A stretch of DNA of 63,916 nucleotides, counting the filler, from Folioceros fuciformis (lineage: Eukaryota): the NCBI GenBank assembly GCA_049999805.1. It is 15 parts of 15 records of this genome, joined end to end, with 100 filler letters (N's around TTAATTAATTAA, not from the genome) between each part and the next. Parts side by side here need not be neighbours in the genome. Positions count along the whole stretch, not along the records: positions 17,498 to 21,534 come from JBNGIO010003199.1; 14 more parts are not named here. One strand, written 5' to 3'. This document shows positions 2,398 through 54,217 of the stretch, in pieces. The notes under the pieces were generated by a model. It worked only from the letters and a program-made list of their open reading frames with translations, ran no database searches and was not told the DNA's origin. Each line of letters opens with the position of its first letter. Within the stretch, counting starts at the first letter, position 1. Made by a program: the position numbers and the translations under genes.

Positions 2398-2922
2398 TGT
2401 GGGGTTAAATATGGTACCCGGCGGTATCGCGAGGTCCACACAAGCCCTCTATGTCGTTGTAGCTCTGGGATTCAATCCCAAGGGAATGATTTGTGTTAAA
2501 CTACACAGGTTAGCTTCTAAAGTCAATTAACACCTAAAGCTCGACTGACCCACACACACACGTCCAGTGCTCGGACCTTACCAAGCCTCCTTAGTTCTCC
2601 CACCAGATTACCCCTCAACCACCCAGTCGCCCCAGGGACTACCGCCCCCTGGACTATGCTTGGTTGCCCACCGGGCTACCCTCCGTCCCCCAATGGACTA
2701 CTACCGTCACTCCTTGGACTACCTCCGTCGCCTTTCGGGCGACGGTCGCCTGATGGTCTACCGCTCGTGGGTCCCACTCTCTCTCCCTCTCTCAGTTCCC
2801 TCTCTCTAGGGTTTTCTCTCCCTAGGGTTTCCTCTCTCCCACCGGGTCGTTCCTACCCGACTGATTACCTCCTGTCCGCGCATCCTCTTTTGCACTTCCC
2901 TTCCTTGGTTCACCACAAAACC
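2398..2922 (-). mobile_element. Truncated Athila/OTA-like LTR (family L2)
   Basis: Starts TGTGGGGTTAAATATGGTACC on +. Homologous to 62960-63419 and 63838-63916. Confidence 0.6.
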
Positions 2923-3987
2923 TGTGGTCCACCACTCCTCCTCCTTCTCTGGTTGCTGAGGACAGCCACAGGCCCCCGTTCTACCCAGCGATGGGCCTCC
3001 TCTTCCATTAGTTCCTCCAGAACTGCCTCCGCATAGCAATGGGGCAGTCCTGTCACCCACCAGCTGTAGTGGTAGAGTCCCAGGCGCGTCCTCAACTGTA
3101 GGCCGTAGCCCCGCGTCCCTCCTGTGCCCATACGTACATACAGAAACAGCTTCAGAACCCTGGCCCCTTCTACATACAGGCCTGGCACATAGGAGGCCTC
3201 CTCCTCATATTGCAGCACAATCCGACCTTCCGTCATAACAGAGGTGCTTACCCCATCCTCCCTTGGGCTACCTCGGGTTGCCTGCTCCCCCTCCTGCTGG
3301 GGTACCTGAAGGTTCTCTGCCTGCCCAGCTGTTGCCTCCTCCGGCTCTGTCCTCCTGGTAGGGGTCACCCTCCTGGAGCGCCTAGGGGCAGGCGCCCCTA
3401 CTGCTTCCTCCTTCATTTCCAAGGTTGGTTCTTTAGCTATCCTAGGCCTTGCTGGGCCACCGGTAGCCTCGTCGACTACTCGACTACCAGTAGTCCCGTG
3501 GACTATCAGGCTACCGGTAGTACCCTCAACTACTGTTCCCCTGGTTCGGCTACCGGTAGCCCCTTCTGCTACCGGGGTTGCCGACTGACTCGGACGCCCA
3601 GCCTTGCCCTTCCCCTTCACTCTCTCTCTGGCCTCATCCCACTCCCGCTTGTATCTGTCAGCCAACTTCTGAGCCTGCTCCACAGCGGCTATCTCCATCT
3701 TTTGTGCCCTGGCCATTTCCTGTTGCATCTCCAGGTTAGTCTCGTGAGCCTCCCTCACCTTAGCTAGCAGGGTCTCCTGTTGCTCTTTCAGCGCCTGCAC
3801 TTCAGCCCTTGCCTCGTGCGCCTCTTCCTCGGCTTGAGCCTTCTCCCTGTCCAGGACCCGCTGCTTCTCCTCTAGCAGTTGCCGCGCCGTCTCCGATTCC
3901 GCCAGTTGCCTCCTTGCTTCAGCCTCTCGCTCATGAGCCTTCTCCTCCTTTCCCCGAGCCTCGGCCTCTCGCTCCGCTTGTACACTT
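2923..3987 (-). mobile_element. Gypsy-associated extra ORF (E/A/R/K coiled coil, S/T/G repeats, C-terminal globular part), truncated at both ends
   Basis: Frame is open from 3987 to 2923 (track ORF 2910-3800). A degenerate homolog lies at 44697-45135. Confidence 0.5.
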
Positions 3988-6900
3988 TGTGACTAAAATG
4001 GAGAGTGCGCATAGATTCATAGCGTAGAGCTTAGTACATTGCAAGATAGCGGCGGCATACAAGGTCTAAGGTGCTAGATAAGCACCGGTCTGATGGCGTG
4101 TAACCGCCACAACCGTTCCTAACCAAACACCTAACCTGCGGTCTAACTAAAGTTCAAAGTCGTAAAATAATCTAACCTATTTACCCCTTCGTGGGGTATT
4201 AGGGTTTGCCCAACACCCCCACTTGACAAGAACTTAACCAAAAAAAACGTAGCCCTAACTCCTCCTCTTCGATTTATTCCTCGCCGCCGCTTGTCGAGAT
4301 GTTGACCGCCAGGTTACTGCCGCTGCTCATTCTGATCTCCAACCTTGTCCTATTTGCCCTTGTGTTTGGAGCAGAGAAAGCAGCTGCCTGTCGGCCACCA
4401 TCGTCATGTCTACACGCTCACTTGCAGAGGTGCGAACTGGCACCTGCAACTTTCTTGTGATCCCTGTAGCCACGCATCCTAATCTTGGGCTCGTGTTTGT
4501 GTTTTGCAGTTCCAGACTTGCAGACTGACTCGACAGACTGACCAGGTGTGTTCTGGACTCAGCTTTCTAACCTAGCCTGCATAAAGTTCTTGACTGCAAT
4601 TATGATATTATTTCTAATCTACGCATGTGCCTAGTCTTCATATACCAAGCCCAGGTGCCGACAGTGCTTCATGTGGGGCTCCGCCGCCAGGGCCTTTGTG
4701 AGAACATCAGCCGGATTTTCCGACGTGCTGATGTAGTGCAGCTGAATTTCTCCTCGTGCCACCACTTCTCTGATGAAGTGATGATGCACTTCAATGTGCT
4801 TAGCCCTGGGATGGAAGACAGGGTTGTTAGCAAGCGCAATTGCGCCTTGGTTGTCACAGAACAGGTTCGGTTCCTCCATCTGTGGCTCTCCCACATCTTC
4901 CAAACATCTACGATCCCACACTACATCCTTGGCAGCAACGGTAAGCGTTTTATATTCAGCTTTAGTGCTCGATAAACATATGTTCTCGTTCTTCTTACAT
5001 GACCACGAAATTGGGCCACCTGCAAGCAGGAACACGTAAGCCGCCACTGATTTTCTACTGTATGGGTCTGCTGCCCAGTCACTATCACAGAAGCCTTCTA
5101 GTTGCATATTATTTGTCTCACACCTCCTGTATGTGATGCAGAAGTCGGCTGTATGCTTGAGATAACGCATCATGCGCTTTACCTGGGTCCAGTGGTCTCT
5201 ACCATATGCTGCCAGGAATTGGGAAAGAAGATGGATTGGGAATGCAATATCTACCCGAGTTAAACAGGTCAGGTAAATTAGTGTTCCCACTGCTGCTTTG
5301 TACAGGACTGAAGCCATTTCTTGCATCTCCTTAGAACTGCTGGCTGCTTGCTCTTTTGACAGCTTGACACCGGACGCTAAGGGTGTATAAGACCCATGTG
5401 CCTCAGCCAGGTTAAACATGACCAACATATCATTTATGTATTTCTTTTGTGTCAGCTGCAGGGTTCGTATCTTTCTGTTCCGAATGATCTCGACACCCAA
5501 AAACCACTTCAATGGACCAATATTAGTCATCTCAAACTCAGATTTCAACAGTTTCTTCACTGTAGGAAGCAGGTTTGTCTGTCCAGGGGTGTAAGCGATG
5601 ATCAAATCATCCACATACACGAGCAACAGAATGTAAGCTCCCTTCCGCCTCAGTATGTACAGGTTGCCATCCACATTGCCCTTGACAAACCCGCACCTCA
5701 TAAGAAATGTTTCTAACCTTGTGTGCCACGCACATGGGCTTTGTTTCAGGCCATACAAAGTTTTATGGAGTTTACAGACAAGATGCTCACTACCTCTCTT
5801 GACGTACCTTTCAGGCTGTGCCATATATATCTCTTCGTCCAAGTTTCCGCTCAAGAATGCCATGCGAACGTCCATCTGTTCCAGGTCCAAGTCCTCATGT
5901 GCAGCTACTGCCAAGACCAAACGGAGGGTAGGGAACTTCACCACTGGAGCGAAGGTTTCAAAGTAGTTCTCGCCCTCTCTCTGTGAAAACCCTCTTACTA
6001 CAAGCCTTGCTTTGTGTCGCTCAATGCTTCCGTCTACATTATACTTGGTCTTAAAGACCCTTACTGATAGTTTTTCTGCCCTTCGATAGTTCTTGCAAGG
6101 TCCAGGTACCGTTCTTGATAAGGGAACTATACTCATTCTCAACCGCCTTTTTCCAGGAGGCTCCATCGTGTCCACCGTAGGCTTCTTGCATAGTGGCAGG
6201 GTTAGATGAATTTGTATTTGCTGCTGCGATAGCATAGACTTGTGTAGCTGTAAGCGTGTTATCCAGACGGCCTGACTGGACTGTTACCAACAAGGACTGA
6301 AGGGCTAGTGGAGTCTCATCTTCATCAGCTGACGTGTCCACGCTGTCACCATCATTGTCCCCCACTGGAGGTACAGTCACCACCGTCCCTGTGGCGAAGT
6401 CTGTATGACTGTGCCGGCCCATCCACTGTTCAGACTGATAGGGAACAGGTGGAGCTCGGGTCCTTCCTGACCTCCGTGGCATTACGATAGGTGCTGCAGG
6501 TACTTCCGCTTCCGGGACAGATTCTCCCACAAATGCGTCACCTCCTGAATAATCATCTAACACTTGCTCAGGTACATACGCTCCCTCGTCAGCCAACGCA
6601 TCCTCATTGAGGTCAAACGAGGCCTCCTCGTCATGAGTCATGCCATGCTCCGACTGGTCAAACACAGCAGGTTCTAATGCCGATTCTGGTGCTGCTGCAG
6701 GTATTGCTATTGTATCCTCCCCTTGAGCATGAGGAGCAGGCATACCTGATGATGGCTCCAGCAGAGAGGCTTCATCAAATACCACACTGCGAGCATACTC
6801 CACTTGTTTAGTAAGTGGATCAAAAAGTTTGTACGCCTTGATCCCGTCAGTGTAGCCAATGAACACTCGTTTCATTGCTCGATCCGATAGTTTAGCATGT

Positions 6901-11076: not shown

Positions 11077-11176
11077 NNNNNNNNNNNNNNNNNNNNNNNN
11101 NNNNNNNNNNNNNNNNNNNNTTAATTAATTAANNNNNNNNNNNNNNNNNNNNNNNNNNNNNNNNNNNNNNNNNNNN
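11077..11176. other. Artificial contig linker (44N-TTAATTAATTAA-44N). 13 more start at 14450, 17398, 21535, 26053, 33845, 46454, 48475, 54118, 55250, 56902, 58048, 59822 and 60986.
   Basis: Identical 100-nt structure with stop codons in all six frames. Confidence 0.99.
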
Positions 11177-12605
11177 TGAGCAAGGTGAGTCCACATATCG
11201 TGGGAAGTCTTTGCATGACCTACTTGTATCACCATTTGCTCCGAAAGTCCACTGATGATAAGGTCTTGTGCCTTCTCGTCCCTGACATCCCAGGAAGTTC
11301 GAAGGTGTGCTTCAAATCTTTTGGTGGGTCTGGGAAGTCTTCCATTGACTATTTCCCAGAGGTCTCATTGTCGCAAGGCTCCTTTCATCCGTATAGCCCA
11401 AACATAATAATTCTTTCCATTGAACCTATCCTTCTCTTTAAAGCTATCACTATAATGATTAATCAAGGTATGATTAGAACTCCCAGAAGGATCCATCATG
11501 GGTCTATTTGGTGACGCTGAAATTTCTTCTTCAATATTAGACACTCCAGCCATAGAAGGTGATTTAGAGGACTAAGCTTTGACGGTACAGCTTTTCATCT
11601 TCTCTATTGCGAGCTCGAAACTCCTCCCTTGTACGGTAACTTGCATTAGGAGATGATGACCTACTTGAAAATTCCTGCACATCTTTGAACTTAGAGAGAA
11701 TGGATACCTTTGTCCTAAGTTTTGTTAATTTTCTCTTGAGATCAAGATGTTGGATTGTTAGATAAGATAATTCTCTATCTAGGTCATCAAGTTTGTGAGT
11801 TTCTATGTTTAGGCCTTGCAGACAAGAAAATTTAGGAGTGTTAGTACCAGCTCTCAAATTGGGAATATGTTGGATGGCTAGTTCTAAGGCTTTAATATGG
11901 ATTGGGCCAAATACTTCTAGCAAATCACGTCTAGCTACTTTAATCAACTTCCCTTGATCTGGTCTAGAAACTAGGATAGATGCAATGAAGTTAGCTATGC
12001 AAGAAGATATTTCAACTATCTCTCCTGCTATAATATGTGAACTTCCATCATTGCTTCTAGTATTCTTGATCCTAACTTGTTTTTGCTGTCTTGCAATCTC
12101 TTTTCTTAATTCTAGGCCTCCTCCTTTTAAAAGAAATCAAATCCATAAAGAGGGGATGAAGAATTAGTGCATAGAAGCATTATTAGAAAAGAGATATTCA
12201 CATGAGAAGAAAGCATGAAGGAGCAACAATTTTAGAAGAAGCACAATCCATCTAGCTAAGTGCTAGATTGGAAAAATGCCTCCTAGATGCGCTCCTTATA
12301 TGCTTGAAGCTGCACTTGCATAATGTAGAGCAAGAAGCTGCACTTGCATAATGTAGAGCAAGAAGCTCTGATACCATGATGAAAATCTAGCCTTGCTCTT
12401 AGATGCAAATCCCAGAATGTAATTGAATTATAATGAAGTAAAGTACAAGCCTTTATATAGGCTAGGTGGTTGAGGTGGTTGGGCGGTTACAACTATAAGT
12501 AGTTGTAACCGAAAGTGGTTGTAACCATAAGTAGTTGTAACCGTAAGTGGTTGAAACTACTAACTACCTAGAATAACTACTAAGTAACTACATTATATTT
12601 TAGCA
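11177..12605 (-). mobile_element. 5' end of Copia element B: LTR about 12377-12605, tRNA-iMet PBS 12365-12376, leader with extra ORF, gag start 11553
   Basis: TGGTATCAGAGC on the minus strand. gag begins KEKDRFNGKNYYVWAIRMKGAL. LTR has TG...CA ends and a TATA-like CCTATATAAAG. Confidence 0.85.
11564..12147 (-). other. Extra sense ORF upstream of gag in Copia B (about 190 codons, probable frameshift near the ATG)
   Basis: Track ORF 11564-11947 stays open for about 65 more codons upstream. Coiled-coil-like LDDLDRELSYLTIQHLDLKRKLTKLRTK. Confidence 0.4.
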
Positions 12606-12627
12606 TCTAAAATGGCCCTAATGAATA

Positions 12628-13686
12628 GTGCCCTATACTACCTATATTTTATCACGCAGGACTGCTATCAAGTGCAAGTGGGTACTCAAAACCAAGTACC
12701 AAGAGGTCGAGCCTCATATACGCTATAAAGCAAGGTTAGTGGCCAAGGGCTATAGTCAGAAAGAGGGAGTTGACTATCAAGGCGATCAAGTTTACTCTCG
12801 TGTGGTCAAAGCAGCCTCTATAAGGATGCTCCTGGCTTTATGTGCTGAACTTATCCTAGACATCTATCAATTGGACATATGCACAACATTCCTCTATGGT
12901 CACCTAGAGGAAGAAATTTATATGGACCAACCTGAGGACTATGAGGACATGTGAGATAACCCCAAAAGGTGTGTAAACTCCTTCGTTCCATTTATGGGCT
13001 CAAACAAAGCCCTCGACTATGGTACAAGCAAATTGACACACATACCTCACGAAGATTTGCTTTCTGCAAAGTGAAGCAAATACCAATCTCTATGTACTGC
13101 TAAAAGACAACTCACTCGTTTTGATAGCATTGTATGTGGATGATCTAGTAATCCCAGGGAACAATGTGAAGCTGGTTAATCAGATCAAGGCTAATCTTAG
13201 TAAGGAGTTTGAAATGAAAGACCTTGGTTAGGTTAAATATATTTTAGAAATGCATGTACATAAAGATAGGTCCACTAGGGCTATCTATCTCCATCAAGGT
13301 AGAGATGTAGCACGGATGTTTAAGAGGTTAAATCTAGAGAATGCACAAGCAGCGGCCACCCCTGGTGTTGTTGGTGTTAAGCTCTCCTCTTTGTCTTGTC
13401 CACAATCTAATGAAGAGAAGAAGAAAATGGAGAGTGTGCCATATCGTATGGCAGTTAGTAGTCTCATGTTCTTAAGTACTAGACTTGGCCAGATGTTTCT
13501 AACGCTATCGATGCAGTGGCACAACTCTCTAAGAACCTAGGGAGGGATCATTGGGTTGCAGTCAAAAGAATAGTGTGATACCTAAAGGGTACTCCCAACT
13601 ATGGTCTTTGTTATAAGCCTAGTGGCAAATGCACTCTACATTGAACTTGCTATGTAGACGCAAATTGGGCCTCCGATGCAGATACA
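12628..13686 (+). mobile_element. Degenerate Copia RT remnant (element C), broken just after the RNase H DANWA motif
   Basis: CKWVLKTK, YKARLVAKGYSQ, IYGLKQ and LYVDDL motifs with many stops and frameshifts. Confidence 0.9.
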
Positions 13687-14556
13687 GTCGCTACCCAAGT
13701 CCAAACATTGCTTCCATAGAGAAGGACTTAGACTAGTAGATTGTAGTAGTCATATCACACAAGATAATTTCCTGACATGGTAAGGCTTATAGTGACTACT
13801 CCGTCATGAGCGAGGTTAGCTACATAGACCTAAAGTCTTGCTTCTCCTCTAGTCATGTTGGGTGCACTTCTGCTTGAGTGGCTGTCAACGATAGACTCAG
13901 CATCAAGAGGTGCAACTGGAAGATGTGATAGCCGAGTTGAAGATGGTAGACTTCAGTGATAATTTTTCTTTAGCATTGATCTCCTTCTAGTTTGGAGCTC
14001 TCAGAATTGGTACATGTCTGAGAGAGAGAGTTAGAAGGTAGACATACAATGTTGGTTCTATAACATTCGAGTTAGTTAGCTAAGATTAATTTCTACTTAG
14101 TTAGTTAAAAGGCTAGTGAAAGGTCACACCCCTTGGTCCAAGGTCTATAAAAGACAATATTTATACTATAAAAAGATAATTGAAAAAAGGTTTAGTTGCA
14201 AAACACGCTTCCACATGTAATTTCTAACTGAATCCTGCAAGTTAGATTGTCTACCTTCTTAGCAGTTCTACTTCTCCTTACACGAATAATAGTATAGACA
14301 AGTGAAATTTGGTGAAGCAATATTGACATAATAGACCTACCATACGTGTGGGTATGGTTGACTCGTAAATTTATCACCAAAGACCAAGGAAAACCAAATT
14401 GAATTAAAAGACACAAAAGAAAAAGAAAAAGAAAAAGAAAAAGAAAAAGNNNNNNNNNNNNNNNNNNNNNNNNNNNNNNNNNNNNNNNNNNNNTTAATTA
14501 ATTAANNNNNNNNNNNNNNNNNNNNNNNNNNNNNNNNNNNNNNNNNNNNCACAAAT

Positions 14557-17397
14557 TGTCCTTGGCCTATGACCAAGAGCAAGGCTACAAGAAGGGCTGG
14601 GTCTGCCTATGTGACGGATCTGATTGCTAGAAGCAGATCACAAGAGAGTAGCAACAAAAAAATGAACTGTGTATTACAATACCTAAAAAGAGATTACATA
14701 TAGCATGAGTTTTGGGTGGTAGTTATAACTGCCCATTAAACCTAATTTAATTAAACTTAAACTATGAACCGGTAACCCAATGAACTGAATACCCGACTAA
14801 TGGTATTTCTAACACTCCCACTCATTGGGTATACCAACTAGAATTAAGTGATATTAAAAACTATCAACTACCACATGTACGCCTCTCAAAACTACGAACG
14901 GGAAGTACCCTCGCTCCGCCAGTCTTCAACTGGATTTACGTCTTCACAGTCGGGAGCTTCGCGCATCCGTTCCACCAGCGCTCAGGTCTGTCAGCTCAGC
15001 CTTGTCGCACCTAACACGGCCGGAAGAACAGTTGCCGCCTCGATCACCTTATCTGATACTGATGACCTTCTCAGTGCCAAGGAGGAGCCAGGAAACAACA
15101 CTGCGTTGAGCCAGATGATGAGGACTCCTGGCGCCATCGACCTGTGTAACTGCAGAGCTTCAAATCCTCCATGCTGTACAGCTCACCCTGACACAATACA
15201 GAGATGGCGTGCCAAGGAAGGAGAGGAGTTCTATCAAATGACACAACACTGGAGAGAAGTCACAAGAGGTCAGCCTTCTGAAGCAGAAACTGAGGCTGGC
15301 AAAGAAGAAGCTCTCCTCCCCAGACGACCTAGATGGGAAGCTGAAGATGATAACGAGATGGGGAGCGACAAGGTTGTCGTGCCTGCAGACTTCATCCCTA
15401 AGAAGCTTGCACTCCCGACAGGCGACTTGAAGAAGAGAAGGCACTTGATCTCTAACGGGAATGGGGCTGACACCCCTCTCACCCCTAAAACTATGTGTGC
15501 ACCTCTACTGGAATCCACATGGTGCAATAGAGGTGGTTCAGATGGGGCGGACATGGCAACAATTTCATATCATTCTACGGTAAGGGTCTTTTGCTAGCTC
15601 TTCTGACGGTCTCCCACTGTTGTTGTGGTTGGAAGAAATGCTGATGTCACAACCCAAACTACGTGCTGTCATGTTTCTAAAGTGTCCAAGGATAAGCTGT
15701 ACGAGAAGGCCGGGATGAACTGGTACCGGTCCTCTGACAATGAGGGAACAGACAGTAGCGCTTCTTTGATGACCATGTCACTGCTCCACCAGCTAACAAG
15801 AAAGAGTAAGCAGACACAGACTTTCTGGTATCGGAATCTGCTGCCCAGTCAGCGTCACAGTATCCTACCAAGGTGAGTGAGTCACTACCGCTGATCTGAC
15901 TATTGTACGCAATCCCATGGTTGCTAGTGCCCTTAAGGTACCTAAGGATACGCTTAGCTGCAGACCAGTGAGGACGACCTGGATCCTTGAGGAACTGAGA
16001 AACTGTACTGACAGCAAAAGCTACATCAGGCCTAGTATGATTAGAACAGAAAATCAAGGACCCTACAGCTTGAGGGTAAGGTACTAGAGACATCTCCTCT
16101 TGCTCACTGTCTGAATGTGGGGACTGCGATTTACTCAACTTACAACCAGCTTCTAGAGGGGTAAGTGCTGGCTTCGCTTCTGTAAGCTTGTACTTAAACA
16201 GCATGTCAAATATGTATTTTTCCTGATGAATAGGAAGAATAACTGAATAACAGAATAACTGTCTCGCAGAAGTTGAGTACCAAGACAGTAAGAGAGCTCA
16301 CCAATGTCAACCATGTCGAAGCGACCAGATAAGAGGGCTTTTACCTTTGTAATTCCTGCTAGGTCTGTGCCCATGAGAATACAGTCATCGACATAGAGGG
16401 CTAAAATAACATAACCCGTTTCATGTTGCAGAAGATACACATTGGTGTCAGCCGAGCTTTTTTGGAAACAAAGCTCGAGTAGGAACTCGTTGATGCGGTA
16501 GTACCAAGCTCGTGGGCTCTGTTTCAACCCATAGATTGTCTTGAGCAATTTGCAGACCCAGTCCTCCTTGCCTCGTAGTTCATACCCTTCAGGCTGCTGC
16601 ATAAATATCTCTTCTAACTTACCATGAAGAAAGGTTGTCTTAACATCCATCTGATGTATATACAGCTTGAAATGGGCAGACATGGCGAAGAGAACCCTCA
16701 GAGACTGAGCCTTGACCACCGGAGAGAAAGTGTCATGATAGTCCAACCCAGCTACTTGAGAGAAGCCCCTAGCAACTAAACGTGCTTTATACCGGGAAAT
16801 GCTGCCATCAACCTTATATTTCAGCTTGAAGACCCACTTCGAGGTGACAATCTTCCTCCCCTGAGGCGGAGGGCAGACTTCCCAGGTATGATTTTGAATA
16901 AGAGAATCATATTCAGATTGAATGGCTGCCTCCCATTGTTTAGCTGCAGGTCCACTAAGGGCTTCCTTGTATGATTGTGGTTCGTGACCAGGGTTGATTG
17001 TAAGATGAGCGTCAGCCTTCCTAAAATCCTCAGAACTATAAGGAGGTTCAACCCAATGAGAGGGAGGCCGATGTACACGAGCAGACCTACGAAGAGGTGG
17101 AGGGACAGGGGCCTGTTCACGTTCAGGTAAAATTGGAGGATCATGGTCTAAATCGCTATCATGATCGGAGTCAGAGGCAGGTGGGGGATCATCTTGATCA
17201 GAATCAACTAAACGTGCATCTGGCACTGGTACAGGTTGAGGGACAGCTACAGCTGGCACAGGAGGAACAACAGGAGGTACAAGCTGAACTGGAGGTTCGT
17301 TCAACGCAGTAGGAAAAGAAGCATCAAAGACTGGAAAATGTGACTCCTCTAGCTCTTCAAGAACAGCATCATCAACATCGTCAGGTTCAGGCACCTC
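14557..17397 (-). mobile_element. 3' half of Copia element D: RT, truncated RNase H, 3' region, PPT and 3' LTR (about 14557-14814)
   Basis: ORFs 16153-17394 and 15677-16204 (YKARLVARGFSQ, LYVDD, YCDADWA). PPT GAGTGGGAG precedes TGTTAG. Confidence 0.92.
14848..15597 (+). CDS. Antisense ORF in the 3' region of Copia D, unknown function
   Basis: 249-codon open frame with a CNC..CC..H cluster and charged C-terminal half. Candidate intron 14986-15074 and GTAAGG donor at 15580. Confidence 0.4.
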   Translation: MILKTINYHMYASQNYEREVPSLRQSSTGFTSSQSGASRIRSTSAQVCQLSLVAPNTAGRTVAASITLSDTDDLLSAKEEPGNNTALSQMMRTPGAIDLCNCRASNPPCCTAHPDTIQRWRAKEGEEFYQMTQHWREVTRGQPSEAETEAGKEEALLPRRPRWEAEDDNEMGSDKVVVPADFIPKKLALPTGDLKKRRHLISNGNGADTPLTPKTMCAPLLESTWCNRGGSDGADMATISYHSTVRVFC

Positions 17398-17497
17398 NNN
17401 NNNNNNNNNNNNNNNNNNNNNNNNNNNNNNNNNNNNNNNNNTTAATTAATTAANNNNNNNNNNNNNNNNNNNNNNNNNNNNNNNNNNNNNNNNNNNN

Positions 17498-19499
17498 CTT
17501 GGGGTTCAGATCCTAAGGATACGAGAGGAAGGCCTGATTATTGTTCACCAACACAAGTACATCAACGACATTCTTCGGAAATTCAAACTTGATGAGGCTA
17601 GGCCTGTTACCACTCCCTATTTTACAGGGGTCAAGCTTACCAGTTTACACTGCCCGCAGACTCCAGAAGAGGTCCAGGATATGCTCGATGTACCCTACAG
17701 GCACGCTATAGGTAGCTTAATTTTTGTTGCTAACTGGACCAGGCCAGATATTCAGTACTCCGTTAGTACAGTATCGCAGTTCTTGGAGAAACCTAGCAGG
17801 GCACACTGGACAGTAGTTAAGAGGATTTTTAGGTACCTAAAGGGTACCCATACATATGGACTTTTCTACAGAAGGACTGGGCAAGGGAAACTTACACTTT
17901 TTGGTTTTACGGATGCTGATTGGGCATCAGACAGCGATTCCAGGAAAAGCCTTTCGACTTATTGTTTCCTGCTCTCATCCTCAGCCGTGAATTGGTCTTG
18001 CAAAAAGCAGTCCTCAATAGCCCTGTCATCAACAGAAGCAGAGTATAAATCCCTAACTGATGCTTCAAAGGAAGCCGAATGGGAAAGAACTTTTCTGCAT
18101 GACTTAGGGCAAACTCAGCAAGCACCTACCTCAATTCTCTGTGATAATATGTCTGCACTTGCCCTCGTAGCCAATCCCAGGTTCCACGCGCGCACTAAGC
18201 ACATTGAAATTCAGCACCACCACATCAGAGATGTTGTGGAGCGTGGAGCTGTGAAGGTTGGTTACATAGGCACAGAGGACAACGTGGCAGATGTGTTAAC
18301 AAAGGGTTTGGTGAAGTACAAACACTATAAGCATCTGTCAGGCTTGGGCCTGGCTGACTATTCTATGCACATGGACAGGCAGTGACTTATCTGTGTAGGT
18401 TGGGGTGGGAACCCGGAGGTTCCCTAGGTGTTATTGAGTGGTGCCTTCGACATCTTTGCAGACACATATAACTGCACATGCCCCACGCACACACAATTAG
18501 GTCAGATGCGGCGTCAGTCCATGAGGAAACAGAGGGAGCAACAATGTTGTGTTGCACTAAGGATGAAGCTTACCTTAGTACTTAATCTTCCTGCAGTACG
18601 GTGCCCCCTACAAAGATGGCTTCACATCCTGCTCTTCGTCATCAACTGGCGCAGGCCCTTCTCCAGCAGCAAGGATGTGCTCCAGCTCCCTGATCCTGTC
18701 GGTAGCTAAACGCAGCTGTGCGACTAGGGCAGGCAGCGCAAGCTCCGAGAAGCGGAAGTCAGGTTGCTGGGGTGCGGGTCCCTCTTCTCGAGGTGCCTGG
18801 GCTGTCCCTGGAACAGGTCCAGGGTTGATTGGGCAGCTGTTCATGAACTGTGCAAGCTCCTCCAATGACCCACATCTGAGCCATCGCAGTTTTCCTTGGA
18901 TCTCCTGCTCTCCCGATGCTGTGCTCGGCGACGGCTGTGCCCTATTTCTCCGTGGCGTCTTCTCCGAGGCAACATAGCCCTTGCCACTGCGCGTCTGCAT
19001 CTCTGTAAGGCGATGGCGGGCGTGGAAGTTAAGCTTGATCGTAGCCAGGTAGGCGAGGGAGATGTTGGCGGCGGCAAACGCTTGCGCGAGGACGTAGTCC
19101 GTCGTTTGCGTAAAGGGTTTTACGCTTGGGTTTGGGTTACGCCGTTCTGTGTGGAGGGATCCTGTTCCGTGATGGGTTTGAATACACGTGTCGTCGTGGA
19201 AATGCACGTTAAATGCCTAAAGTTGCTTTAGAGGGAGTGTTGGAAATAAAGCCAACATTAGGATAAAGAACTTAGGGTTTCATTAAGTAAACCGTTTCAG
19301 AGTTTAGTATTTAAACAACATACACATACAATTTTGTATTCAATTTATTGTTTTGTATCAAGTTTTGTTGTTCCAAACTACTCTCCATAAATTCTCATCG
19401 CGGAATTCTGGAACCCTTAACTGCGAAGAACGCGTTCGCGGAGGTCAATCTGGCGAAGTTGGTGGATAAGCGCATCGTCTGGGTTTTACGGAGTTCACA
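17498..19499 (+). mobile_element. 3' end of Copia element E: RT/RNase H, 3' region, PPT and LTR (about 19238-19499), inserted in a Gypsy protease
   Basis: ORF to 18385 with FTDADWA, STEAEY, CDN and ADVLTK. AGAGGGAG precedes TGTTGG and the LTR ends TTCACA. Confidence 0.92.
18608..19000 (-). CDS. Antisense gene in Copia E (130 aa, MQTRSGK..., C-terminal coiled coil) with predicted UTR introns
   Basis: Acceptor CCTTACAG lies 2 nt before the ATG. 3' UTR intron 18573-18472 has AAG|GTAAGC, CCTAAT and GTGCAG. Confidence 0.5.
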   Translation of the reverse strand: MQTRSGKGYVASEKTPRRNRAQPSPSTASGEQEIQGKLRWLRCGSLEELAQFMNSCPINPGPVPGTAQAPREEGPAPQQPDFRFSELALPALVAQLRLATDRIRELEHILAAGEGPAPVDDEEQDVKPSL

Positions 19500-21534
19500 C
19501 CGGCCCGAGTTTATCTACGCATGGCTGATCAAACCAAGAGGAAACCCTTGGGAGTACTTCGGAATGTGCCAACAGTGATTGGAGGAGTCACCTTCTATCT
19601 GATCTACATCGTTATGCGACCTGTGTCTGATTTGGGGTATAAGGTTCTCCTAGGAAGGCCATGGCTGTATGGCACCACTTGTGTCTTCGATTTCGGGAGG
19701 CAAGGCGTCACCTTTACAACTCGACAAGCAGGGGCCAAGGGGACCGCTTTCGTCTCCTGGAGCAGAGCGCCCTACGGAGGGGAGATTGAACCGCCCACAG
19801 CAGGTTAGACTTCCAGAGGAACAGGCGACAGCTCCTTGGGGGCATATCAAGGGCTCTACGCGGAGGAGAGACACGTTGACAACCCGCGGTGCTATCGGGT
19901 GGATGCGATCGTGGAGGATAGATCGGAGGAGGGCCCGCCTCCGCTCGCAGAAACACCCATCGCCTGGAAGGAGTCCCCCGGGGAGGAAGACGAGGGTCGG
20001 AGGGAAGGCTCGGCTTTTTGGAAGGGGTGAGCTTTTGATCAGGATTTTCCCGAGTGGGAATCTAGGACAAGTGTAGGCAGCAGTCCCGAGGGGGTCTATG
20101 TCGACCCCGATGCGGTGGAAGAAATGGAACTTGAGCCTGGTAAGAGTGTCAAAGTGTCCAAACATTTGCTGCCCGAGGAGCGAGGGGGACTGAAGGCCCT
20201 CCTACAGGAATACATTGATGTATTCAAGTTCAAAGTAACCGATATGAGTGGAATGCCAGAAGAGTTGGGAATTCATCGTATCGACCTAAAGGAAGGAAGC
20301 ACTCCGGTGAGGGTGAAGCAATATCGGTTGAATCCCAAGTATTTGATGGTGGTGAAAGAGCAACTGGACCCAGTATCTGGAGGCGGGAGTAATTTACCTT
20401 GTCTGCACCAATGATTGGGTGCCTCCCATCGTGGTAGTGCCCAAGAAATAGCCAGCGAAGGTCAGGGTCTGCTAGGACTTCCGTAAACTGAATAAGGCCA
20501 CCAAGAAGGATCACCACCCTTTGCCCTTCTTGGACAGCATGCTGGATACCGTCACGGGCCACGAGATGTACAGCTTCCTGGACGAGTATTCTGGCTACAA
20601 TCAGATTTCTCTGCGAAAAGAAGATTAGGAGAAGACCACCTTCACAACGGATTGGGGAACCTTTGCGTACTCTAAGCTTCCTTTCGGTCTCTGCAATGCC
20701 CCTGCGACCTTTCAGAGAGTGGTGAATACCATTTTCAAGGACTTGCTCCAAAAGATCATGGAAGTCTTCTTAGATCACTTTTGCGTATTTGGGAAGCGGG
20801 AACTGCACTTGGATCACCTACGCAAGTGTCTGTAGAGGTGCCGGGAAACAAATCTCAAGCTCCACCCTGGCAAGTGTTACTTCGGGATGACGGAAGGCAT
20901 CCTGCTGGCTCATCGAGTGTCAGCACGGGGACTACAGGTGGACCACGAGAAGGTCAAAGTAATCGCTGAGATGGACGCCCCACAAAACGTGAGACAGGTG
21001 CACTCCTTTGTCGGTTTGGTAGGGTACTACCGCCGCTTCGTCTGCAACTTTGCCAAGAAGGCTGCTCCTCTTACCCAGCTCACCAAGAAAGACGGCCCTT
21101 TCCAGTGGACCGCTAAGAGGGAGGCAGCATTCCAACAATTGAAGGCAGGCCTGGTTCGGGCACCAACGCTATAACCTCCGAATTGGGAGAAGACGTTCCA
21201 TGTGGACGTGGATGTGTCTGCTTACGCCATTGGCGCTGTTCTCAGCCAGCGGGACACACAGAGTCGCGACCATCCCATCTTTTACGCTGGCAGGCAACTG
21301 ACTAATGCAGAACAGAATTATTCAACGACCGAAAGAGAAGCGTTGGGCATCATCTATGCCTGCAAGAAATTTTGACATTACCTCTTGGCGTGCAAGGTAG
21401 TGTTCCATGTGGATCACTTTGCATTGAAATACCTGGTCAACAAGCCGGACCTTTCGGGAAGAATCGCCAAGTGGGTCCTACTCCTCTAGGAATACGACTT
21501 CGAAGTGGAAACTCGAGCGGGGAAGAAACATGTC
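19500..21534 (+). mobile_element. Degenerate Ty3/Gypsy pol (non-chromovirus, Athila/OTA-like): protease tail, RT, RNase H
   Basis: VLLGRPWL; KDHHPLPFLD..YSFLDEYSGYNQI; PFGLCNAPATFQR; NYSTTEREALG; SGRIAKWVLLL*EYDFEV. Confidence 0.92.
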
Positions 21535-21634
21535 NNNNNNNNNNNNNNNNNNNNNNNNNNNNNNNNNNNNNNNNNNNNTTAATTAATTAANNNNNNNNNN
21601 NNNNNNNNNNNNNNNNNNNNNNNNNNNNNNNNNN

Positions 21635-30181: not shown

Positions 30182-30917
30182 GCGCACTGGTCGGGGTTTT
30201 CGCAATGTGCGTACCAACTCCTAGTGGGACGCCGGGCTAGGTGGTTTGTCTACAGGCGATTGGTCTGAACTCGAAGAAACGTCAAACTCTTTGACAAAAC
30301 TGTTCCCCACACTCCTTTTCCTGGGTGTACCTTATTTCAACGGTAATAATCATGGTCATTACTGCCGAGCATTGATGTCTAACCCGACTTCTCTCAGAAT
30401 TCGGAATGCCAGAAACAATTCATTGCGTCCATGTCTCACGACCTTTCCTTTCGGCTTCGTTTTCGTCAGGAGATCTTCGCATGTAGGCTTGGATGTTGCG
30501 CCTGGAAGGTTCTAATTGTGCGAGAAATGATTGCTGCTGTGGACATGTTTATTTGTACAACGATGCCTCTAACATAGTCATGTTTGGTATGCCATAGGAT
30601 GGCCGTCTTCATAGTAAAACGAGTTCCGATTGCTCTGAATATGGATTGCGTCATGCAAGGAAAACGAGGCCGGAAAAGATATTAAAAGACTATAGGCATA
30701 CTGTTTGTACATACATTCGTACGTAGCCCATGTGAGCCTTGTCTGACTACCGACGCTAGAGACCCATCGCGCCTTGAAGCATGCAAGCAAGTGCTTACGC
30801 AGCTGCTCTGAGCGGTGCTCCAGCGAGTATTGCAATACATTTGTCACTCGGACGGATCGTGTGGAACAGGCAGGGAGATGACAAGCTGAGGTTGTAAGAT
30901 TCGCATCAGCGCGTCTG

Positions 30918-32231
30918 ATGGTGGAAGCTGTGGCGCTCTTGTGTAAGCGCACGGGGATGGCTTGGGTCCAGCGCCTGCTTTGGAGCCTGCGGGGTCAGGC
31001 ATGCACAGGTGGGTTGGCAGCAGCCCGACAAGAGCACCTTCTGGGCCTTAGAGTTGTTGCATCTGCCACGGTTCTGGACTGCAGTAGCCAGGGACTGCGG
31101 GGGATCTTGCCAATGGCTGATACCCTTGCCTCTGGATGGAGTGCTTTGGCCGTTGCCAAGTGGAGGATATCAACAGCGGGGAATACTGTTTCGCGACAAA
31201 TGCACAGGGGCTATGCCACCGGTAGGGAAGGCGCCGGGCAGCGGTTGCAGTACGAGTTCCAGGTGCTGCAGCACCAACAGCGACCTGGGTTCAGGATTAG
31301 GACCGTGCCTTACAGCACGGAGTCGTTCCAGCAGGGCTGGGCAGACAAGTGGAAATCCTTCCGGCAGAGTGTCCAGGACGCTGCGCTCTCCAAAGGGGCA
31401 GCATCGGGGACGGGACTTCGCAAGGCGAATGTGGCCACACAGAAGATCTTGAAGGAGACTGCCTTCGTGCCTGGTGCCGCTTTGAGGAGCTCCGTGTCTC
31501 GGTACAGGGAGGCTGCCCAGCTTCAAATAGAGGCGTTTTGGAAAAGGAATTATCTGGTTGTGGTCGGGGTAGCCGCCGTGGTGTTGTGTCTCCTTTTGTG
31601 GAGGATCATGTTTGGGGTCGCCAGCACTTTTGTGGGGCTATCCGAGGGCATGGCCAAGTTTGGATTTCTGGCCCTGGCAGCAGCTTTTGTGGCGTTTTCT
31701 GGTTTGATTGTCCGGGCAAGATATACAATAAATCCAGATGCAGTTTACAGGACAGCCATTCGTAAGCTTAACTCATCTGCTGCGCTGTTGGAAGTCCTTG
31801 GTGCTCCACTCACTGGGACTGACGTGCGAGCTTACGTGATGTCGGGGGGAGGACTAAAGCTGAAGAGTTTCAAACCACGCCTAACAGGGAAACGTTGTTT
31901 CCTGATATTTCCGGTAAAGGGTTCTGAAAGGAGGGGATTGGTTAGTGTGGAGGCTAAGAAGAAGAAAGGTCAGTACGAGTTCAAGCTGCTGGCTGTGGAC
32001 ATTCCAACTGCAGGAGTTGACCAGCGGATTTTCTTAATTGGTGATGAGAGTGAGTATAAAGTCGGCGGTGGACTTATCTCCGAGCTCAGAGAGCCGATAT
32101 TGAAGGCCATGGAGGCACAGAAGGAGTTTGACGATGAAGACGAAAGAGAAGCTGAAGAAGAGGAACGGTTGGAGCTCCTCCAGGCGGAGAAAGATGCAAA
32201 GGAGCAGCTGAAGAAACAGATTGACGCTTGA
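30918..32231 (+). CDS. At2g40800-like mitochondrial inner-membrane protein (Tim21-annotated family), intronless, 437 aa
   Basis: Presequence-like N-terminus, two TM helices, YTINPD.VYR, GAPLTGTDVRAYVMSGGG, KRCFLIFPVKGSERRGLVSVE and an acidic tail. The start codon could be 30957. Confidence 0.88.
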   Translation: MVEAVALLCKRTGMAWVQRLLWSLRGQACTGGLAAARQEHLLGLRVVASATVLDCSSQGLRGILPMADTLASGWSALAVAKWRISTAGNTVSRQMHRGYATGREGAGQRLQYEFQVLQHQQRPGFRIRTVPYSTESFQQGWADKWKSFRQSVQDAALSKGAASGTGLRKANVATQKILKETAFVPGAALRSSVSRYREAAQLQIEAFWKRNYLVVVGVAAVVLCLLLWRIMFGVASTFVGLSEGMAKFGFLALAAAFVAFSGLIVRARYTINPDAVYRTAIRKLNSSAALLEVLGAPLTGTDVRAYVMSGGGLKLKSFKPRLTGKRCFLIFPVKGSERRGLVSVEAKKKKGQYEFKLLAVDIPTAGVDQRIFLIGDESEYKVGGGLISELREPILKAMEAQKEFDDEDEREAEEEERLELLQAEKDAKEQLKKQIDA

Positions 32232-44000: not shown

Positions 44001-44696
44001 CATGGCGATCTCGTTTGCAATCGTGCATAACGCTATCTACCATAGAGGCTGAGTATGTTGCAGCGACTGAGGCTTGCAAGGAAGCCATGTGGCTTGCTCG
44101 TTTAGTGGGAGAGTTGTGGATCAAGGTTGAGCTGCCAATGTTGCATTGTGATAGCCAAAGTGCTATCCAATTGGTGAAGAATCTAGTGTTTCATGCGAAG
44201 ACCAAACATGTGGAAGTGAAGTATCACTTCATTCGAGAGGTGTTGGAAGGCAAGAGGGTACAGCTTGTCAAAGTTCACACTAGTCAAAACCCTGCAGATA
44301 TTCTTACCAAGGGGCTCTCTACGGAGCAATTCGCACAAGCTCGGACACTCATGGGCATGAGGTAGACCACTCTCCTATGAAGGTAAATTGAGCTTTAAAT
44401 GGGAGGTTGTAGGGTCATTAAAGCCCAATGTGCTTAGACTATTGTGTTTAGTCTAAGATTAGTGTCTAGTTAAGTATCATTTGTTTAGATTAGCTTAAGC
44501 TAATCTGTAGGAAGCTTCTTGCGCAGCTTCCTGTGCGCTTCTTGTGAAGCTTCCTTGGGAGCTCTTCTAGAGGGTATAAATACCCCTTTGAGCTCCCTTG
44601 CAATTGAGACACTGAGAGTGTGAGACCTCTCTTTCTCCTCTCCTCCTTGCTTCCTCCTCTCCTCTTTCACCATGTGGCTCCTTTAGCGATCCTTCA

Positions 44697-46553: not shown

Positions 46554-48474
46554 TCGTCAGGCTGAACACCGGCAGCTAACATCTCCTCAAAACAAGCTAG
46601 AGCCTTGCGACCTTCATCACAAGCACCATACCCAGCGATCAGGGCATTCCATGTCACCAAATCTTTAGCGGCCATCCTGTCAAAAACCTGGCGTGCATCT
46701 TCCAGCTCACCACATTTTGCATACATGTCCACCAGGCAGTTTCCCACCACTACATTGTCCACCAGTTCTCTCTTGACAATCTGTGAGTGAAGCTCTCTGC
46801 CCTTCTGCAAGGAACCAGTGCTTCCACACGCCTTCAGAAGGCAAGCAAAAGTAACATCATTAGCCAAAACGAGGCCAGCCTCCTCCATTTGTCCATGCAC
46901 AACAAGCGCCTCTTCGCCGAATCCTTGCTGTTCATACCCAGCAATCAGAGCTGTCCATGTAACCACATTCTTTGTGTTCATGCTGTCAAAAACCTGGCGG
47001 GCATATTCCACCTCCCCACATTTTGCATACATGTCCACCAGGCAGGTTCCCACCACTACATCATCCAGCACACCTCTGCTGACAATCTGTGAGTGGAGCT
47101 CCCTGCCCTTCTGCAAGGCACCAGTGCTTCCACACGCCTTCAGAAGGCAAGCAAAAGTAACATCATTTGCCAAAACGCAACCTGCCTCCTCCATCTGTCC
47201 ATACACAACAAGCGCCTCTTCGCCGAGTCCTTGCTGTGAATACCCACCGATCATGGCTGTCCAAGTCACCACATCCTTCGAGGCCATGCTGTCGAAAACC
47301 TGGCGGGCATATTCCAGCTCACCACATTTTGCATACATGTCCACCAGGCAGTTTCCCACCACTATATTATCCAGCAGTTCTCTCTTGCCAATCTGAGAGT
47401 GAAGCTCCCTGCCCTTCCGCAAGGCACCAGTGCTTCCACACGCCTTCAGCAGGCAAGCAAAAGTAACATCATTAGCCAAAACGAGGCCTGCCTCCTCCAT
47501 CTGTCCATACACAACAAGCGCCTCTTCGCCGAGTCCTTGCTGTGCATATCCAGCAATCAGGGCCGTCCATGTCACCACATCCTTCGAGGCCATGCTCTCA
47601 AAAACCTGGCGTGCAGATGCCAGGTCACCACATTTTGCATACATGTCCACCAGGCAGGTTCCCACCACTATATCATCCAGCAGACCTCTGTGCACAATCT
47701 GTGAGTGAAGCTCCCTGCCCTTCTGCAAGGCACCAGTGCTTGCACACGCCTTCAGAAGGCACGCAAAAGTAACATTATTCGCAGAAATGAGGCCTGCTTC
47801 CTCCATCTGCCCATACACAACAAGCGCCTCTTGGCCGAGTCCTTGCTGTGCATACCCAGCGATCATGGCTGTCCATGTCACCACATCCTTTGAGGCCATG
47901 CCGTCGAAAACCTGGCGAGCACCTTCCAGCTCACCACATTTTGCATACATGTCCACCAGGCAGTTTCCCACCACTATATTATCCAGCAGTTCTCTCTTGA
48001 CAACCTGTGAGTGAAGCTCCCTGCCCTTCTGCAAGGCACCAGTGCTTCCACACGCCTTCAGAAGGCAAGCAAAAGTAACACAGTCAGCCAATACGACGCC
48101 TGCCTGCTCCATCTGTCCATACACAACAAGTGCCTCTTCGCCGAGTCCTTGTTGTGCATACCCAGCGATCAGGGAATTCCATGTCACCACATTCTTCGTG
48201 TCCATGCTATCAAAAACCTGGCGTGCATCTTTCATTCGCCCACATTTTGCATACATGTCCACCAAGCAGCTGTTAACAAACAAGTCAGTACGGAAGCCAC
48301 TGCGCAACACGTCGCGGTGCACTGTTCTGCCAGATTCTAAGTCGACAGCAAATGCACAAGCTTGAACGGCGGCTACAAAGACATAACCATCCGCCTTCAC
48401 TTCTGACCTACGCATTTCATGGTACAGTTGTATGGCCTCCTTCGGCTTACCGTGCTTAGCATGTGCAGAGATTA
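46554..48474 (-). CDS. PLS-class PPR protein (probable organellar RNA-editing factor), partial at both ends
   Basis: Stop-free frame with about six P-L-S triplets (VVTWxAxIAGY / VTFACLLKAC / CLVDMYAKCG) ending in a P2-like motif. Confidence 0.95.
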
Positions 48475-53437: not shown

Positions 53438-53593
53438 GGACCACGTCCTCGGATGTTGTTGTTAATCCTGTTTGTTCTCCAGTCTCTACCGACACCTGGA
53501 GTTAGGGGACAGGGAGGGTTAGACAGTAACACCAAATTCCGGCAGCAGGTGGATGAAGCTCCACGTTTTCTAACTGACCTGGATGTTGGAATA

Positions 53594-53929
53594 TCACCGC
53601 TCTCTCTCCCGCCTTTCTTTGAGCAGCTGAAGCAGCTTCTCTGCTTCGTGAAGTGGCTTGAGCAAGCTGGAGTTCTCACCTACATCTGCTGGCAAACCGC
53701 CTTCCCCTTCCATTTTCACTGGCCTGCTCCAGCACAGCTTCACATCAAGTGCAATCCTCCAACCACCAAGTGTCACACTCGAGCCCAGGACATGGCGTTC
53801 ATCCCACTCGTCAGCCTTCGGAGGCATAGGGCGCGGCGGCTGTTTCTTCTGCCTCCCTCCCTCTTTCTTGCTCTGCTCATGCACGGGGCTTGCGGCCTCT
53901 TTCCTTCCCGCTTCACGCCCGGGAGCCAT
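53594..53929 (-). CDS. Antisense gene in Copia I (111 aa, MAPGREAGRK..., basic N-terminus, C-terminal coiled coil) with predicted UTR introns
   Basis: CACCATGG start context. Introns 54073-53943 (GTAAGC..ATTCTCAG) and 53578-53496 (CAG|GTCAGT..CTAAC..TCCAG), plus donor GTAAGT at 53431. Confidence 0.5.
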   Translation of the reverse strand: MAPGREAGRKEAASPVHEQSKKEGGRQKKQPPRPMPPKADEWDERHVLGSSVTLGGWRIALDVKLCWSRPVKMEGEGGLPADVGENSSLLKPLHEAEKLLQLLKERRERER

Positions 53930-54217
53930 GGTGATCAGCAGACTGAGAATATGCACGCAAGTGTACACGACTGTGATGAAGGCAGCGTAAGCTGTCGCGA
54001 TATTCATAGCCATCCTGCCAGCTCAGGCGCACAGGGGCGCACTTGATTGTAGTTGTTGGGCGTAATCGCTTACGTCCCTCAACTTTCCGCTGCGCGCTCC
54101 TTGTGACTGTCCTTTGGNNNNNNNNNNNNNNNNNNNNNNNNNNNNNNNNNNNNNNNNNNNNTTAATTAATTAANNNNNNNNNNNNNNNNNNNNNNNNNNN
54201 NNNNNNNNNNNNNNNNN

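Follow-up and report, generated by a model that had tools for sequence, protein, structure and literature searches.

Some plant long terminal repeat (LTR) retrotransposons carry open reading frames (ORFs) antisense to gag-pol between pol and the 3′ LTR, as passages of two papers describe (PMC7264820, PMC11963269). In the Tat/Retand elements of the Ty3/gypsy superfamily these frames, termed aORF-3R, include gene23 of maize Grande and the antisense ORFs of rice RIRE2 and Silene Retand; in the same passages their functions are given as unknown, and the Grande ORF is credited with its own promoter and a nuclear product (PMC7264820, PMC11963269). HBZ of human T-cell leukaemia virus type 1 (HTLV-1) is likewise encoded antisense, at the 3′ end of an element that replicates by reverse transcription, and, in the available part of one of these papers, is said to be driven from the 3′ LTR (PMC7264820). 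For the Ty1/copia superfamily, the portions of text at hand report antisense promoters in apple Mdoryco1-1 and Arabidopsis AtRE1 (PMC7264820) and a copy-number-control idea for the antisense RNAs of yeast Ty1 (PMC11624286). Here we describe a candidate antisense gene in Copia E, a Ty1/copia element within a 63,916-base stretch of the genome of Folioceros fuciformis (the window). The gene would consist of a 130-codon minus-strand ORF, located in the spacer that separates the pol stop from the polypurine tract (PPT), and of an intron that begins just past its stop codon.

The E ORF (18608 to 19000, minus strand; ATG at 19000, stop TAG at 18610-18608; 130 codons plus stop) has the position by which aORF-3R are recognised, as it sits between the pol stop at 18385 and the PPT at 19230 on the strand opposite to gag-pol. 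It also resembles most Tat/Retand aORF-3R, as the consulted passages present them, in lacking similarity to known proteins (PMC7264820, PMC11963269). The scale, however, is different: the Tat/Retand regions between POL and the 3′ LTR are given there as 2.9-6.6 kb with ORFs mostly above 600 bp, whereas E is a Ty1/copia element with a 0.84-kb spacer and a 390-bp ORF. The Transposase_28 domain TRP28 (PF04195), said in the portion seen to be encoded by 97% of Retand clusters, has no match in E: the 202-residue open frame that contains the E ORF gave none at E values up to 0.1, and neither did the ORFs of two further Copia fragments of the window, C3 and I, described below. The word 'intron' occurs 0 times in PMC11963269 on Retand-type ORFs, whereas an antisense intron is proposed for E. 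HBZ shares with the E ORF its antisense orientation at the 3′ end of the element, but it comes from a vertebrate retrovirus and contains a bZIP domain, for which, as for any other Pfam family, the E ORF gave no match; in sequence the two are unrelated. Mdoryco1-1, AtRE1 and Ty1 are in the same superfamily as E and have reported antisense transcription; the text at hand treats them as promoters or RNAs, however, rather than as conserved spliced genes that encode a protein in the pol-PPT spacer. No plant Copia element with a spliced, protein-coding antisense gene was described in the literature searched, which included term look-ups in the survey PMC6317226 and had supplements and subscription papers outside its scope. 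Judging from the sequence, the likeliest reading of the E region, which we would believe about as readily as doubt, is an antisense accessory gene that is specific to its lineage and bears an intron at its 3′ end, a Copia variant of what is known from plant Ty3/gypsy elements.

The window consists of 15 contigs joined by N44-TTAATTAATTAA-N44 linkers (11077-11176, 14450-14549, 17398-17497, 21535-21634 and ten more), and features must not be read across the joins. Its contigs are crowded with Ty1/copia and Ty3/gypsy fragments, plus one pentatricopeptide repeat (PPR) gene, as would suit a repeat-rich genome of plant type. Copia E is a 5′-truncated copy in the contig at 17498-21534, the start of which cuts the element off on its 5′ side. 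What is left of pol (17498 to 18385, plus strand) is a 295-codon open frame holding the end of the reverse transcriptase (RT), a complete RNase H and the stop TGA at 18383-18385. This frame aligns over its full length to the other Copia pols of the window with 47-69% identity (tblastn), matches the C-terminal part of RVT_2 weakly in a Pfam scan, and finds Copia polyproteins in the databases, the closest 60% identical and the others 50% or less. The 844-nt internal spacer (18386 to 19229) follows, then the PPT agagggag (19230 to 19237, plus strand; the same junction is present in C3) and a complete, AT-rich 3′ LTR of 160 bp (19238 to 19397, plus strand; TG..CA), which starts with TGTTGG, ends with ..CTCA and carries TATTTAAA at 19308-19315. 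We set the LTR end at 19397 because a contig of the public DNA sequencing run X3, from the same organism, which matches the LTR to 19398, there leaves it and reads GGTATCAGAGC, the Copia primer-binding-site motif (tRNA-Met type) that is also found beside other Copia copies of the window. E's own 5′ LTR lies off the contig, and the primer-binding-site evidence is from the LTR of another copy. With pol on one side and the PPT and LTR on the other, the 3′ internal region of E belongs to a Ty1/copia LTR retrotransposon. The region was thus correctly placed inside the element by an earlier note on this DNA, and every motif which that note listed (the ATG at 19000, the stop, donors, acceptors, branch motif and PPT) is present. 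The spacer contains no tandem repeats, the only array found being at 19332-19369 within the LTR; an Rfam scan gave 0 matches, and blastn and tblastn found no relatives of the spacer or its ORF elsewhere in the window. Beyond the LTR, protease- and RT-like frames from about 19440 onward (19398-21534, plus strand) indicate that Copia E is inserted in a Ty3/gypsy element, as we read the ORFs (for example 19470-19805) rather than from a domain scan.

We compared the antisense ORF with chance expectation. An alternative to a gene is ordinary non-coding 3′ internal sequence that belongs to the genomic RNA and is required only for carrying the PPT, with the ORF and splice motifs arising by chance in a GC-rich stretch and picked out by eye. 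The length of the ATG ORF fits this alternative, as 130 codons were reached by 6.2% of 2000 dinucleotide shuffles, and the stretch has open runs of 93-132 codons in several of its other frames. The complete stop-to-stop frame is harder to obtain by chance: its 202 codons were reached by only 0.85% of 2000 dinucleotide shuffles of 18385-19237, in which the longest such frame averaged 116±27 codons. The 72 codons of this frame that precede the ATG (19001 to 19216, minus strand) contain no ATG and are not coding-like (−0.013 bits per codon in the model below); we read them as a 5′ untranslated part or a decayed N-terminal part.

Codon usage also speaks against a chance ORF. We trained a codon model on nine secure ORFs of the window (5094 codons in total), leaving E pol out; by this model the E ORF scored 0.142 bits per codon, and the other five frames of the ORF region from −0.12 to −0.32. 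E pol itself gave 0.129 when read in frame and about −0.4 when not. Among 977 chance ORFs of at least 90 codons obtained from 3000 shuffles, the scores were −0.009±0.052 bits per codon, and only 0.41% reached that of the E ORF. When the 123 open frames of at least 100 codons in the window were scored, values above about 0.1 belonged mainly to frames matching transposable element or PPR genes (Pfam, tblastn). The GC content by codon position in the E ORF follows the order GC1 (0.67), GC3 (0.59), GC2 (0.51), the same as in the PPR gene of the window. A gene on the sense strand of the spacer was considered and rejected, the plus-strand frames scoring negative or near zero in the codon model. We also discarded upstream-ATG depletion as evidence, since the 255 nt of the putative 5′ untranslated region (UTR) contain 0 ATG but 39% of shuffles equal this.

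A near-consensus 5′ splice site, AAG/GTAAGC (18565 to 18576, minus strand; G at 18573), lies 35 nt past the stop of the ORF. Scored with a crude generic plant consensus matrix, not trained on this organism, it reached 10.3 and was the sole donor of at least 5 on the minus strand of the spacer. A donor of this strength occurred anywhere in the region in 3.3% of 1000 shuffles, and about 0.010 such donors are expected per 80 nt. The E ORF together with the donor 3′ of its stop is thus better than chance. The partner of the donor is less clear. The earlier note had proposed a 102-nt intron (18472 to 18573, minus strand) ending at a GTGCAG acceptor; the donor of this intron held up. CTGAC branch-like motifs lie upstream of that acceptor (about 30 nt by our count). 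An alternative intron of 183 nt (18391 to 18573, minus strand), with the acceptor CCTACACAG at 18391, makes the best donor/acceptor pair on the strand, with a score of 14.0 that 1.6% of shuffles reached. The acceptor at 18391 ties for the best on the minus strand, and the exon beyond it would run antisense over the pol stop. The same site (CAG/ATAAGT at 18391/18390) had been taken for a near-donor pointing into RNase H; it is no donor, and by score it ranks among the top two acceptors of the strand.

The second intron of the earlier proposal, in the 5′ UTR (19003 to 19123, minus strand, or starting from 19140), did not stand. GT is present at both 19140 and 19123, CTTAAC at 19033-19028, and CCTTACAG ends at 19003, 2 nt before the ATG, forming a good acceptor. 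The donors are weak, however (scores 2.7 and 0.2), 99.8% of shuffles hold a better donor/acceptor pair, and no such intron is present in C3. An LTR donor, ATT/GTATGT at 19329 (score 5.4), could possibly pair with the acceptor at 19003. Comparison of splice scores with shuffled sequence, which had been named as one test of the proposal, leaves the 5′ intron and the pair ending at 18472 no better than shuffles, and the donor at 18573 better.

We noted a similar arrangement in two other Copia copies of the window. C3 lies in the contig at 14550-17397 with its pol on the minus strand, and I in the contig at 48575-54117; their pols are 53-69% identical to that of E. In C3, an antisense ORF of 240 codons (14875-15597, plus strand) nearly fills the 859-nt pol-PPT spacer and has a donor, ACG/GTAAGG, at 15580. 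None of 2000 shuffles reached this length (0/2000), and its codon score of 0.088 was reached by 4.7% of 362 chance ORFs (p 0.047). In I, an antisense ORF of 139 codons (53594 to 54013, minus strand) lies just 3′ of pol and is followed by a donor, CAG/GTCAGT, at 53578, which with a strong acceptor at 53496 would delimit an 83-nt intron with CTAAC motifs upstream of the acceptor. Its length was reached by 3.5% of 2000 shuffles and its codon score of 0.151 by 0.68% of 591 chance ORFs (p 0.007). The best donor of the region adjoins the ORF stop in all three elements: 35 nt after it in E, 16 nt after it in I and 17 nt before the end of the ORF in C3. Combined over E, C3 and I by Fisher's method, p was 1.2e-4 for length, 1.4e-4 for codon score and 0.009 for donor position, the last under a uniform-position null and with 19 nt used for I, which is slightly conservative. 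Recurrence of an ORF with a stop-proximal donor in two further, unalignable Copia spacers (combined p 1e-4 to 9e-3) speaks against non-coding sequence, and so does the base composition, all three spacers being GC-richer than their own pol and LTR (in E, 0.55 against 0.46 and 0.28, respectively). The region that follows pol is visible in six Copia fragments of the window, three of which have the antisense pattern. Of those that do not, the copy in contig 1 carries a long ORF in sense orientation instead, the one that ends at 44362 is nearly devoid of a spacer, and that at 13283-13686 is degenerate and AT-rich.

The layout that the earlier note had seen in both E and I therefore holds for the antisense ORF beside pol and for the best donor near the stop, but not for the 5′ UTR intron. 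The two proteins were said not to be visibly alignable, and indeed they are not. E and C3, in contrast, show a weak collinear similarity between residues 19-115 of E and 93-197 of C3, with a Smith-Waterman score of 48 that 0.4-2% of whole or block shuffles reached, against 28 for reversed-sequence controls; BLASTP gave an E value of 0.03, with 22% identity over 64 residues. This similarity is a weak hint of common descent. The upstream open frame of E was tried as the counterpart of the C3 N-terminus and rejected, the similarity being at chance. In nucleotide sequence, the PPT/LTR junction GGGAGTGTTRGAAATA is common to E and C3 (the C3 junction reads gagtgggag/TGTTAGAAATA) and their LTRs are alignable in part, and an alignment of E, C3 and I around the donor showed no convincing conservation. 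A conserved gene structure with a fast-evolving protein, as had been suggested, thus has statistical support from the three elements, though not in its 5′ intron or its C-terminal helix. It is conceivable, though we lean towards doubting it, that each member of a plant-type Ty1/copia group (pol 50-70% identical) keeps a fast-evolving, intron-bearing antisense gene in its pol-PPT spacer, with the ORFs barely recognisable between members and the donor fixed by the stop; such genes would be the Copia counterpart of the antisense genes of Retand and Grande and of HBZ.

Three Copia copies of the window have a feature of their pol ends in common. In I (at 53398), C3 (about 15758) and the copy in 11177-14449 (at 13686), similarity to RNase H is lost within 30 residues after the DADWA motif, the C-terminal half being lacking. 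The distance from the break to the donor is 181 nt in I and 178 nt in C3, against 188 nt from the pol stop to the donor in E. The breaks in the three copies could be deletion derivatives or assembly joins.

The splice donor also bears on an RNA-only role, in which a spliced antisense transcript would act by pairing with the genomic RNA, through small interfering RNA (siRNA) or by limiting copy number, as is supposed for antisense RNAs of other retroelements, and the ORF would be incidental or weakly translated. The donor is the strongest single motif of the region, and either candidate intron leads the transcript towards or, with the acceptor at 18391, over the pol stop. The antisense promoters of Mdoryco1-1 and AtRE1 are a precedent within Copia, and a double-stranded RNA role has been raised for such transcription in the part of PMC7264820 available. 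A protein that evolves so fast that lineages are barely alignable would also fit a function carried by the RNA. Such a function, however, would not call for the long open frames and the codon bias that the three lineages show, and we consider this explanation improbable.

In a single-sequence AlphaFold model of the predicted E protein, residues 26-40, 46-55 and 88-111 are helical and the remainder is low-confidence or disordered; the protein also has a small basic patch (PRRNR). The last helix has a pLDDT of about 80-85 and, in this single-sequence model, a clean heptad over about 3.5 turns, with SLLLAILLG at the a and d positions. The C-terminal coiled coil of the earlier note thus corresponds to one predicted helix, which is not shared with C3. 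In the C3 model the sole long helix (residues 106-130, pLDDT below 50) lies on the segment aligned to helices 26-40 and 46-55 of E, and the zipper-like C-terminal helix is not seen. HBZ, too, ends in a leucine-zipper-type helix, and one form of its transcript is spliced.

Several results weigh against an antisense gene, and some of them also favour a non-coding spacer. The first concern the ORF and its splice sites. The coding-like signal is confined to the C-terminal half of the ORF (18820-18640, 0.13-0.38 bits per codon), and its N-terminal half is close to 0. Of the splice sites, the acceptor at 18472 is a weak one, and the score of the 18573/18472 pair was matched by 43.6% of shuffles, besides the 5′ intron being at chance. 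The p values above are somewhat optimistic, as E and I had been chosen by eye in the earlier note. In E and I the donor comes after the stop, in C3 before it, so that the position of the intron relative to the coding sequence differs, and the proteins of E and I, as well as those of I and C3, are similar only at the level of chance (z 0.3-1.1). Fold and recognition scores are also poor: AlphaFold confidence for the E protein is low (mean pLDDT 58), as is its language-model recognition value (1680), and in ESM Atlas the best score was 0.84, below the meaningful level.

The same holds for searches for homologues. The E ORF found 0 matches among 5.8 billion proteins in a word-indexed search and, among 1.84 billion representatives searched exhaustively with HMMER, one marginal low-complexity match (E 5.8e-4). 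There was none in genome_contigs, and in viral_contigs only two acidic matches of 16-17 residues, which we dismissed. The C3 ORF was likewise without a homologue in a database search, and no Pfam family was found in any frame among 24 frame pieces of the three spacers, apart from two chance-level rows (E about 0.09). These blanks are weakened as evidence because the closest pol in the databases is only 60% identical to that of E: the Copia family of E is not represented there, and the absence of homologues says little on conservation within the family.

The searches also bear on capture of a host gene, in which a piece of such a gene, with its intron, would have been taken up in reverse by transduction and would now be decaying. 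The GC content and codon usage of the ORF are like those of host-type coding sequence, an intron-like segment is present, and capture is a discussed origin of additional ORFs in the portion of PMC7264820 that we drew on. On the other side, nothing among the 5.8 billion or 1.84 billion proteins resembles the ORF, and no frame matches a Pfam family. Moreover, a single capture would not account for three lineages that have different ORFs at one and the same position, all in one orientation. We regard this origin as very improbable.

We also examined other copies of the element in contig pieces from two public DNA runs of the organism. Near-identical pieces cover E from 18809 to 19245 without gaps. 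An X2 copy, about 81-83% identical, is gap-free over 18674-18888 and 18980-19112, and between these segments has 94 letters against 91, which keeps the frame. Among the differences listed, three substitutions lie within the ORF, two at third positions and synonymous by our codon reading and the third changing Gln to Glu. To be counted with the unfavourable results is a diverged copy that has a 1-nt deletion at 18890, within the ORF, and contributes roughly half of the X1 depth and one third of that in X2. A frameshifted copy fits a non-coding spacer, as do the N-terminal half of the ORF with its lack of coding signal and the absence of homologue, domain and confident fold. Chance open frames in such a spacer are, then, a serious rival to the antisense gene, if in our estimate an unlikely one, set against the codon usage, the 202-codon frame and the recurrence in C3 and I.

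More distant relatives were sought with E pol in metagenome_contigs, which gave 64 loci, all at most 53% identical and, for matches longer than 35 residues, at most 47%. Of these, 51 reach the C-terminus of pol and 41 have 850 bp downstream, several being near-duplicates. No true antisense ORF (with an ATG and at least 130 codons) was found at any of the 41 (0/41), which again counts against the proposed gene, and the antisense layout is therefore not general to Copia. These loci are, however, too remote for testing conservation of the E ORF itself, and no close Copia relatives with DNA context were found in viral_contigs. The sole long antisense ORF at the 41 loci (L038, 505-1140, minus strand) was rejected, being a TIR-domain host gene (Pfam E 1.9e-29). 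Because it adjoins the end of a Copia pol head to tail, it mimics an antisense ORF of the element.

If the antisense accessory gene is real, we infer its transcription, splicing, translation and function as follows. The mRNA would start in or just inside the 3′ LTR, and translation from the ATG at 19000 would give a 130-residue, mostly disordered protein with a basic patch and three helices, two of them short and the C-terminal one leucine-zipper-like. The intron directly 3′ of the stop codon would be removed from the donor at 18573 to the acceptor at 18472 or 18391, and the transcript would end over the 3′ end of pol. Because replication goes through the sense RNA, an intron present only in the antisense transcript would be copied faithfully with the element. 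By analogy with Grande, RIRE2, Retand and the retroviral HBZ, the product may regulate the element's own expression or replication, and the antisense transcript itself could also pair with the genomic RNA.

Elsewhere in the window we noted a few other features. Downstream of a minus-strand Copia pol that ends near 4634, and on the same strand, lies a 360-codon ORF (2913-3992, minus strand) that is rich in Glu, Ala, Arg and Lys and coiled-coil-like, matches no Pfam family and has a codon score, 0.228, among the highest of the window. It may be a sense additional ORF of that Copia element, around which LTR boundaries were looked for and not found. The PPR gene (46627-48269, minus strand; 674 codons) consists of tandem repeats of a 306-nt unit, with 85-91% identity between the units. 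A 188-nt Copia RNase H segment occurs twice near one contig end (59305-59492 and 59634-59821, 329 nt apart) with 98% identity, which could be a tandem duplication or an assembly artefact. Finally, an ORF of 449 codons (30882-32228, plus strand) scores high in the codon model (0.208), has weak matches of the TIM21/Coa1 type and may be a cellular gene.

Apart from a few retroviruses, antisense accessory genes have been documented mainly in large Ty3/gypsy elements of the Tat/Retand type. Should the ORF of Copia E be only chance, the region is an ordinary Copia 3′ spacer. If a compact, spliced antisense gene does recur in Copia lineages, the second major superfamily of plant retrotransposons would be shown to have evolved or retained such a layout as well. 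A 130-residue protein in a 0.8-kb module would then offer a small and tractable system for the function of such genes, and annotators would be warned that 'non-coding' 3′ regions of Copia elements can hide genes.

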